Origin: Dehalococcoidia bacterium
GTDB lineage: Bacteria; Chloroflexota; Dehalococcoidia; Bin125
Length of the DNA: 64,000 nucleotides
Assembly (NCBI GenBank): GCA_963555985.3
Contig: OY820591.1
Location: 544,001-608,000 of the forward strand
Direction of reading: 5' to 3'
The notes beneath the pieces were generated by a model, which was given only the letters and a program-made list of their open reading frames with translations, was not told the origin of the DNA and searched no databases. Positions within the stretch are counted from its first letter, which is position 1, and every line of letters begins with the position of its first letter. Positions 23,989-25,505 of the stretch are shown in pieces. The position numbers and the translations under genes were made by a program.

Positions 23989-25505
23989 GCAGGACTCGCC
24001 TGATCGTGATCGCGACGATCGTGCTCGCGGTGGTCGGATTTTTTCTGATGCGGGCTCCTGCGCCGGTGATCGCGCTGGCGGCTGAACCGGTGATCTCGAT
24101 TGGCTCCTACGAGATCACGAACACGATTCTCTCGGCGTGGGTGGTGATCGCGCTGCTTGCGATTGCCGCGTTCGTGGTCTACCGGCGGACTCGCGATGTT
24201 GAGAGCGCGCTCGTTCCGAGCGGGTTTCAGAACTTGGTCGAGGCGATTTACGACGCGTTCATGAACATCGCCCAGCAGGTGGGCGGGGAGCGCAACGGGA
24301 GGAAGTTCTTCCCCTTCGTCTTCACGATCTTCATCTTCCTGCTGATCGGCAACTGGTTCGCGCTGTTTCCCTGGAATAACGTGATCGGCCCGGTCGAGAA
24401 CTACCGCTATCACTACCTGCACGAGATGGAAATCTCAGTCGTGGAGGTGGTTGAGGATCTGGAGAGCGGCGAGCGCGAGCTGTCAAGCGGTGAAATCGAC
24501 GCGATCAACAAGGCCTTCCAGTCCTCTTTCTTCATGCCGATTCACTTCAGCGACTACGAAACGGGCAGTTTCCAGGAGACGCACGCGCAGTCCGACGTTC
24601 ACATCGCCGAGCTGATGGCAGGCCAGATCAGCGATCTCGAAGCGGACGTGCGCGCCGAGTTCCTTTCCGAGCCGTTGCCCTCAGATCTGCATGGCGAGGA
24701 TCTGGAACACGCGCTGGCTGAACGCCTGGAGGCCGCCGGCGTTGATGAGAAGTACGTTCACGACGCGATTTTCTACAATCTGCCGCTGGCCGCCGGCGAC
24801 GCAGAGTTGGTCCGCGCGACCGGTCCGATTCTGAGTGGTTCCGGCTTCAAGATCATCCCGCCGCGGACGCTGTTCGACACGCCGCGCGACTTCTCTTACG
24901 ACGCCTTTGCCGAGCCGGTCTTCATCGACGGCCAGGACGCGATCTGCCTGCCGTCAGACGACCGCGAGTGCTCCGGCGATGCCGCGCTGACGACCGTCAA
25001 CACGGCGCATATCGGTTTCGTCCAGAAGCTCGACGACCAGGGCTTTGCCGGTGAAACGGTCGGGCATATCTTCCCGATCTTCCGAGCCCTGGCTTCCGAC
25101 GTGAACCTGCCGCTGGCGCTGGCGCTGTGGTCGTTCCTCGCGGTGCAGTACTTCGGGATGCGCGGGGTCGGGGTTGGGGCCAACTTCGGCAAGTACATCG
25201 GGGTGGGTTCGCACGCGATCGTGAAGGGGCCGATGGGGGTGTTCGTTGGGATCCTGGAGATCGTTTCCGAGGTGGGGCGGGTGATTTCGTTCACCTTCCG
25301 TCTCTTTGGGAACATCTTCGCGGGGGAGGTGGTGCTGTTCATTGCGATGTTCCTGGTCGCGTTCGTGGTGCCGACGGTGTTCTTCGGGCTCGAGGTCTTC
25401 GTCGGCTTCATTCAGGCCTTCGTCTTTGCGATGCTCACGCTCGTGTTCGCCTCGACTGCGGTGGGAGATCACGACGAGCACCATGACGAGGCCAGCGGCC
25501 ACTAG
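23985..25505 (+). CDS. atpB: F0 subunit a with large internal insertion
   Basis: 'PSGFQNLVE', 'ASDVN', '[14 protein letters not shown]', '[10 protein letters not shown]'; 506 aa. Confidence 0.95.

Follow-up and report, generated by a model that had tools for sequence, protein, structure and literature searches.

The window, i.e. the whole stretch of 64,000 nucleotides that was analysed, contains a complete atp operon on the forward strand, in which atpB is gene 2 and is followed by atpE, atpF, atpH, atpA, atpG, a gene for a HAD-family phosphatase, atpD and atpC. The genes of the operon and the features of AtpB are as follows, all positions being those of the window.

23734-23988, + strand: gene 1, atpZ/atpI type (84 aa; PF09527, E 2.4e-13), its stop overlapping the start of atpB
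23985-25505, + strand: atpB, Fo subunit a (506 aa), an open reading frame uninterrupted by stops, matching PF00119 in two stretches
24381-25064, + strand: putative extracytoplasmic domain inserted in the aH3-aH4 linker (residues 133-360), supported by AlphaFold2 and by counts across family and class genomes
24402-24812, + strand: predicted six-helix acidic subdomain (residues 140-276; 31 Asp/Glu, 6 Lys/Arg, 8 His)
24813-24863, + strand: predicted beta-hairpin (residues 277-293; strands 277-283 and 287-290 in the full-length model)
24945-24971, + strand: Cys321/Cys329 pair, optional according to the Cys patterns of 100 homologues
24999-25016, + strand: conserved NTAHxG motif at the start of the last helix (Asn339 in 100/100 and His342 in 99/100 homologues)
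25299-25301, + strand: essential Arg439, equivalent by alignment to Arg249 of Chloroflexus aurantiacus (PMC12002316)
25413-25415, + strand: Gln477 of the FIQA motif, conserved in 100/100 homologues
25467-25502, + strand: His/acid-rich C-terminal tail of AtpB (4 His and 5 Asp/Glu in 12 residues)
25565-25813, + strand: atpE, subunit c (82 aa, Glu65; PF00137)
25914-26417, + strand: atpF, subunit b (PF00430)
26454-27008, + strand: atpH, full-length delta (184 aa; PF00213 positions 2-172 of 172)
27051-28577, + strand: atpA (PF00006 and open reading frame translation)
28629-29504, + strand: atpG (by position and sequence alone)
29508-30176, + strand: HAD-family phosphatase within the operon (PF13419, E 4.5e-36)
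30201-31610, + strand: atpD (PF00006 and open reading frame translation)
31659-32096, + strand: atpC, epsilon (PF02823, PF00401)

AtpB is assigned by sequence to the F-type ATP synthase subunit a family (PF00119, TIGR01131); the operon order is canonical for this family, but the protein is twice the family length. Both of its halves match PF00119 around the gap (139.4 bits against a cut-off of 33.9), while the score with TIGR01131 (97.7 bits) lies just below the cut-off of 102.6, probably as a result of the split match. The genome carries a single atpB and only F1Fo was found there; V-ATPase subunit I was not found in the genome (96% complete). Subunit c has Ile32 and Ala66/Ile67 beside Glu65 and contains none of the polar Na+ ligands around this glutamate that mark coupling to Na+. 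The subunit thus does not have the residues expected of a Na+-coupled enzyme, and F1Fo is likely H+-coupled.

No promoter-like site was found by consensus scan. In the intergenic region upstream of atpZ, a hairpin of 12 bp without mismatch and, after it, a 43-nt sequence repeated in tandem (two copies, 93% alike) occupy 23514-23624. In 21 of 24 family relatives, an orthologue of the HAD phosphatase is encoded on the same strand as atpB, 5.4-5.7 kb downstream of it; in one relative it lies on another contig, and in the other two it was not found with this query. Elsewhere, the 3.3-Mb genome encodes one heme-copper oxidase, two sets of complex I antiporter subunits of ordinary length (G000:C1:1261019-1265358 and 2846595-2851008) and at least 30 family-5 solute-binding proteins (30 PF00496 loci).

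The large, hydrophilic and acidic insert which the initial annotation had reported in AtpB is evident from the open reading frame, from the motifs quoted there (each found at its place) and from the split PF00119 match. The segment then assigned to it, 24390-25062, corresponds to residues 136-360. Cys321 (24945) and Cys329 (24969) lie in a 17-residue stretch of the insert, while Arg439 (25299) lies in a 20-residue stretch downstream and Gln477 of FIQA starts at 25413. The loop between Pro129 and Pro364 comprises 234 aa, as compared with 54 aa in subunit a of C. aurantiacus (Pro127-Pro182, read off the alignment) and 10-31 aa in Dehalococcoidia with short loops; the figure of about 220 extra residues given earlier holds against a canonical subunit a, but is nearer 180 against Chloroflexus. 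The 16 solved subunit a sequences matched have at most 312 residues, and the best PDB sequence match of AtpB is C. aurantiacus subunit a (9itj_T, E 3.1e-42). As aligned with the aH3-aH4 linker of this solved homologue, the insert would be located outside the membrane, next to the proton inlet. Six channel residues of the C. aurantiacus protein (Arg249, Asn253, Glu258, Glu280, Glu235 and Glu239) are equivalent to Arg439, Asn443, Glu448, Glu470, Glu425 and Glu429 of AtpB. These six, together with Arg432 and Gln477, are present in 100/100 full-length homologues (495-560 residues long; one chimera was omitted by name), in agreement with the earlier statement that the essential Arg and Gln are intact.

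Among the genomes searched, the insert occurs in one family. In a first search, all 24 genomes of the same family align across the insert, whereas 16/16 genomes of other families give two separate matches. A profile built from 37 inserts matches 25/25 family genomes and none of 375 other genomes of the class in the sample searched, where the unpublished G259 is counted as one genome without match; in a sample of the phylum it matches the one family genome and none of 399 others. The named records that carry the insert are all MAGs of Dehalococcoidia or Chloroflexota; one of them is 'Chloroflexi bacterium bin125' (82% identity), and the insert-bearing family appears to be the Bin125 lineage. 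This lineage is placed in Dehalococcoidia in the available part of PMC10608941, and bin125 is listed among sponge Chloroflexota in that of PMC12879404. A short-read contig of run X1 is identical to 24321-25115 (0 differences) and crosses both junctions, but perhaps comes from the source sample and is then not independent; a 15-kb contig from a second study aligns piecewise on either side of the insert and inside it, with matching spacing. The GC content at third codon positions is 0.81 in the insert, and 0.85 and 0.88 in its flanks; no repeats were found at the insert borders.

Stand-alone copies were searched among 1.84 billion representatives, and 15 of the 20 matches carry AtpB membrane sequence, four are pieces of 87-153 aa within the insert which look like partial gene calls, and one is an unrelated repeat protein. 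A further search gave 10 matches (124-457 aa), nine with PF00119 and the tenth a piece of AtpB. Among individual records, P0004 and P0094 have SecA-like and carboxylase-like N-termini fused to AtpB and look like chimeric assemblies, while P0090 and the G012 copy (locus L025) look frameshifted, the frameshifts of the latter lying downstream of the insert. The insert varies in length within the family (225-269 aa, and about 320 aa). P0085-P0087 (595-601 aa) contain about 85 extra residues of repetitive Glu/Ala/Arg between helices 5 and 6 of the domain, which probably form a coiled coil.

The insert is under purifying selection as judged from dN/dS, which is 0.04-0.45 in 18/18 close pairs, compared with 0.03-0.14 for the membrane core (the pairs are related and not independent). 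Mean weighted conservation among the 100 homologues is 0.57 for the insert, and 0.75 and 0.83 for the two core halves; 19 of the 228 insert columns are at least 95% conserved. A near-invariant polar set is formed by Arg141, Glu149, Asn175, Asp204, Arg223, Arg247, Asn265, Asn339 and His342.

The 228 residues of the insert include 45 Asp/Glu, 12 Lys/Arg and 9 His, and carry a net charge of -14.5 per 100 residues. This is more acidic than the exported baseline of the organism: none of 30 solute-binding domains of the same genome is as acidic (median -9.0) or as rich in histidine, and none of 22 lipobox proteins, a crude set, is as acidic (median -10.7). Asp/Glu make up 16-24% of the loop in 100/100 homologues, although at just 7 of the 45 acidic positions is an acid retained in 90% or more of them. 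Since the share of acidic residues is kept while their positions are not, a diffuse charged surface fits better than a binding site.

The initial annotation had also laid weight on the cysteine pair and on histidine, which the homologues do not bear out. Cys321 and Cys329, the only cysteines of AtpB, likely form a structural disulfide; the same CX7C spacing is found in 13 of the 100 homologues, CX3C in 44 and no loop cysteine at all in 34, while nine have four loop cysteines (eight including CX3C and one with another pattern). Among the histidines of the insert, only His342 is near-invariant (99/100), the other eight being kept in 2-70% of homologues, and the histidine content of the loop ranges from 0.4 to 7.3%. 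These residues are thus unlikely to serve as a redox or metal switch, as the Cys pair is optional and the histidines are variable.

The fold of the insert is predicted. In AlphaFold2, the insert alone reaches a pLDDT of 88.6 and a pTM of 0.87 and is modelled as six helices with a beta region and a final helix. Modelled at full length, AtpB scores less well (pLDDT 70.2, pTM 0.57), but the insert part of this weak model is still confident, and the model adds strands at 134-139, 277-283, 287-290 and 358-362. The insert is predicted to be a domain of its own, with a stem of two strands connecting it to the membrane part. The best Foldseek match of the full-length model is the C. aurantiacus a-subunit (E 4.3e-8). 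For the insert itself, no family was found in Pfam and NCBIfam at E up to 1, none of 37 insert members matched PHROGs, and a profile search of PDB sequences gave only two matches (E 0.74-0.82). Foldseek of the whole insert model against the PDB gave none at E ≤0.001 (best E 0.81), and against BFVD none (best E 0.21); VIA-align over 48,161 chains gave at best Z 2.7 (rmsd 3.6, 78 aligned residues), or Z 2.2 at a second look. In the literature searched, no description was found of a folded insert of about 230 residues, and Dehalococcoidia do not appear in the available portion of the main text of bioRxiv 10.64898/2026.10.01.756066. The earlier view of an undescribed extracytoplasmic domain is supported by the alignment to the inlet-side linker and by the missing family match; it overlooked that a short insertion at this site has already been published for Chloroflexus.

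The site itself is an expansion hotspot: judging from the sequences compared, the aH3-aH4 loop has been enlarged repeatedly across Chloroflexota. The loop was surveyed at 105 loci, of which four had no usable frame and three were truncated or misaligned; the set is not random, as 60 loci were included mainly because their PF00119 match was split and 40 because of a strong single match, and five were added. In the 98 loci kept, from other families of Dehalococcoidia, the loop has 10-176 aa, and 73 of the 74 loops of at least 50 aa are net negative. In a FastTree phylogeny of 228 core columns, the insert family forms one clade (support 1.0), while loops longer than 120 aa occur in several separate clades. 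The insert is the largest such loop in the Dehalococcoidia sampled, but other giant loops exist in the phylum. A search for long subunit a sequences gave 46 matches, 31 from the insert family and 15 others, two being named Anaerolineae or Phototrophicaceae by their source. The Anaerolineae-type proteins (P0144-P0158; 510-675 aa) have a loop of 218-342 aa at the same site in 14/14 measured, and of 272 aa in the fifteenth. These loops contain 16-25% Asp/Glu (14/14) and a conserved stem Cys pair as in Chloroflexus; homology to the insert was not detected (best E 0.035, hhalign probability 0.2%).

Loops of at least 50 aa share a short beta-hairpin. A hairpin motif derived from 44 outside loops has its best site at residues 277-293 in 24/24 family loops; against shuffled sequences, p is 0.13 for the AtpB described here and ≤0.05 in 9 of the 24. 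Homology over the whole loop to the shorter loops of Dehalococcoidia was not detected (best HMM score 8.5, compared with 10.1 among 480 shuffles; hhalign probability 0.8%). The hairpin at residues 277-293 is likely an older scaffold of the Dehalococcoidia loop, and we infer with moderate confidence that the insert arose stepwise, by growth on both sides of this hairpin, rather than by capture of a foreign domain. In seven genomes of another Dehalococcoidia family (L153-L159, e.g. L110:1132-1368), the same loop contains a biotinyl/lipoyl-like barrel-sandwich domain of about 79-90 aa (PF00364, E 2.4e-5), in which the turn that carries the cofactor lysine seems absent. This domain and the tip additions of about 85 residues suggest either a permissive site or a function that reaches outwards.

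The closest known system is the C. aurantiacus enzyme (9itj series), which has the same insertion site, channel residues, N-terminal aH1 and His-rich tail as AtpB. The available part of its description (PMC12002316) reports that the aH3-aH4 linker contains a 'unique insertion', His142-Thr172, which is partly disordered; that a disulfide, Cys135-Cys173, closes it on the periplasmic side and can be reduced by DTT without effect on activity; and that the inlet half-channel starts at the periplasmic residues His170/Asp171 and passes linker residues. An insertion at this site is thus already published in short form. The loop of AtpB differs in having 234 aa and a predicted fold, instead of 54 aa in partial disorder; Val137 aligns with the stem Cys135, so that the stem-closing disulfide is absent and the Cys pair lies elsewhere. 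The two enzymes also differ in delta. In the same available text, the authors tie a short delta of 157 aa to an a2b4delta2 design with two a-subunits and two stalks, whereas delta is here 184 aa long and matches PF00213 from 2 to 172 of 172 positions. As delta is full length, two stalks and two a-subunits are not expected here, and F1Fo is likely otherwise normal and single-stalked. Delta has about 180 aa in the Dehalococcoidia loci examined. The short-delta, two-stalk design, proposed as a Chloroflexi feature in the accessible portion of PMC12002316, may on these sequences not extend to Dehalococcoidia.

A second precedent is the E. coli Fo, for which the available parts of PMC8754430 and PMC9447477 describe a periplasmic funnel of carboxylates and imidazoles at the inlet; a proton antenna of about 40 Å is postulated there for Fo because measured fluxes at pH 8 exceed diffusion. 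The funnel likewise consists of acidic residues and histidines on the outer face at the inlet, but is shallow and formed by short loops of a and b, whereas it would here be a separate domain of 25 kDa. The antenna role is a proposal both for the E. coli funnel and for the insert.

The explanation we favour, tentatively, is that the insert is an acidic cap over the proton inlet that collects protons. The folded domain on the outer membrane face would cap the inlet with a negatively charged surface, gather protons and hand them to the intact channel residues, which would help where outside protons are scarce, as at seawater pH. Selection acts here, at the opening of the inlet, on acidic content and not on individual positions, which fits such a cap; among the roles proposed, composition favours an antenna only moderately. 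Also counted in favour are the linker site, the intact channel, selection on the insert, acidity above the exported baseline, convergent acidic loops and the published precedent. Counted against it are the acidity of exported proteins in this genome anyway, which makes part of the signal generic, the variability of histidine, the residue that buffers near neutral pH, the loops of 10-31 residues with which many Dehalococcoidia manage, the barrel-sandwich domain and the tip additions at the same site, and the weakness of the full-length model. Small exposed domains are, moreover, usually more charged than large ones. A broader view is doubtful, namely that Chloroflexota repeatedly built large acidic outer domains of unrelated sequence on the inlet loop, and that the insert would have a new fold and be a dedicated proton-collecting cap, one that lets ATP synthase work when the outside is alkaline or the proton motive force is low, and that could be grafted onto model enzymes.

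It is unlikely, but less so than the other alternatives, that the domain is a structural brace or contact module, which stiffens the stator or touches the envelope, a neighbouring synthase or another membrane complex. The defined predicted fold and the invariant polar/hydrophobic core (Arg141, Arg223, Arg247, Asn265, Asn339) exceed the needs of a charged patch, the long helical tip extensions of P0085-P0087 and the long acidic Anaerolineae-type loops look like spacers, and the barrel-sandwich domain occupies the same site in seven genomes of another family. However, no partner gene travels along, as the only extra gene of the operon is the HAD phosphatase, which has no predicted export role; the full-length delta makes a two-a-subunit architecture like that of C. 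aurantiacus less likely; and surface positions vary widely (mean conservation 0.57). The loop may instead be permissive and have grown by drift, the additions being needed only for the folding of each other and having no role in proton flow. This is improbable given that the insert has not been lost in 25/25 and 24/24 family genomes despite a cost of about 220 residues, that dN/dS is below 0.5 in 18/18 pairs and that acidity exceeds the exported baseline, although the continuum of 10-176 aa in other families, the unrelated additions in several clades and the variants of 225-269 aa and about 320 aa inside the insert family would all agree with drift. So would the C. aurantiacus linker, which is partly disordered and whose disulfide can be reduced without effect on activity, as far as the available text of PMC12002316 goes. 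Slightly less probable again is a gate or shield, in which the domain regulates proton flow, either through a bound ligand or metal or by keeping inhibitors of a host environment away from the inlet and the a/c interface. The nine near-invariant polar residues could serve such a function, the relatives include a lineage reported from sponges, and a metal cap is described for the cytoplasmic channel of P. aeruginosa subunit a (PMC12796488, available part); but the insert has no conserved His/Cys ligand cluster, its conserved polar residues are readable as fold-stabilising, and no known ligand-binding family of Pfam or NCBIfam was matched.

Two further explanations have very little probability. 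A redox switch through Cys321/Cys329 would draw on two cysteines eight residues apart and on the regulatory disulfide known in chloroplast gamma, but 34 of 100 homologues have no loop cysteine, the spacing varies, and DTT has no effect in C. aurantiacus, where the corresponding loop contains a disulfide (PMC12002316, available part for both comparisons). An in-frame insertion in a conserved essential gene might also be an intein, another mobile insert or an assembly artefact, and this can practically be dismissed. An intein was rejected, as no family was found for the insert and PF14890 was not found in the genome (the control rang in 6/14). The C-terminal His-Asn/Gln followed by Cys/Ser/Thr (H[NQ][CST]), which marks the end of an intein, is present in 0/103 homologues, and the insert model is largely helical and the insert fixed in the family. 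A mobile insert or artefact was rejected by its presence in all family genomes searched, the GC3 (0.81, with 0.85-0.88 in the flanks) and the borders without repeats. Each of the outcomes which the initial annotation had named as fatal to its claim was looked at, and neither a Pfam, NCBIfam or PHROGs family, nor an intein, nor an assembly artefact was found.

Few parts of the rotary ATP synthase are as constrained as subunit a. As its inlet loops naturally range from 10 to 340 residues and include independent acidic expansions, the long-standing proton-antenna proposal can be tested by loop swaps in one enzyme; the domain, which is soluble and modelled with confidence, also lends itself to structure determination. 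A structural role would instead reveal that ATP synthase is tied to the cell envelope in Dehalococcoidia that are abundant and uncultured. Additions to subunit a that are confined to a lineage can alter activity, as shown in the available parts of two reports: P. aeruginosa has a metal cap over the cytoplasmic channel (PMC12796488), and the His-rich exit-side extension of ice worm ATP6 raised synthesis about 5-fold once moved to E. coli AtpB (PMC12035521). Both are His/acid additions affecting synthesis, but they are short, C-terminal and on the exit side, and so resemble the tail of the AtpB described here rather than its insert. Tails of similar His/acid richness are found in most Dehalococcoidia AtpB sequences inspected, and the tail of this AtpB resembles the exit-side tails that bind metal or raise synthesis elsewhere.
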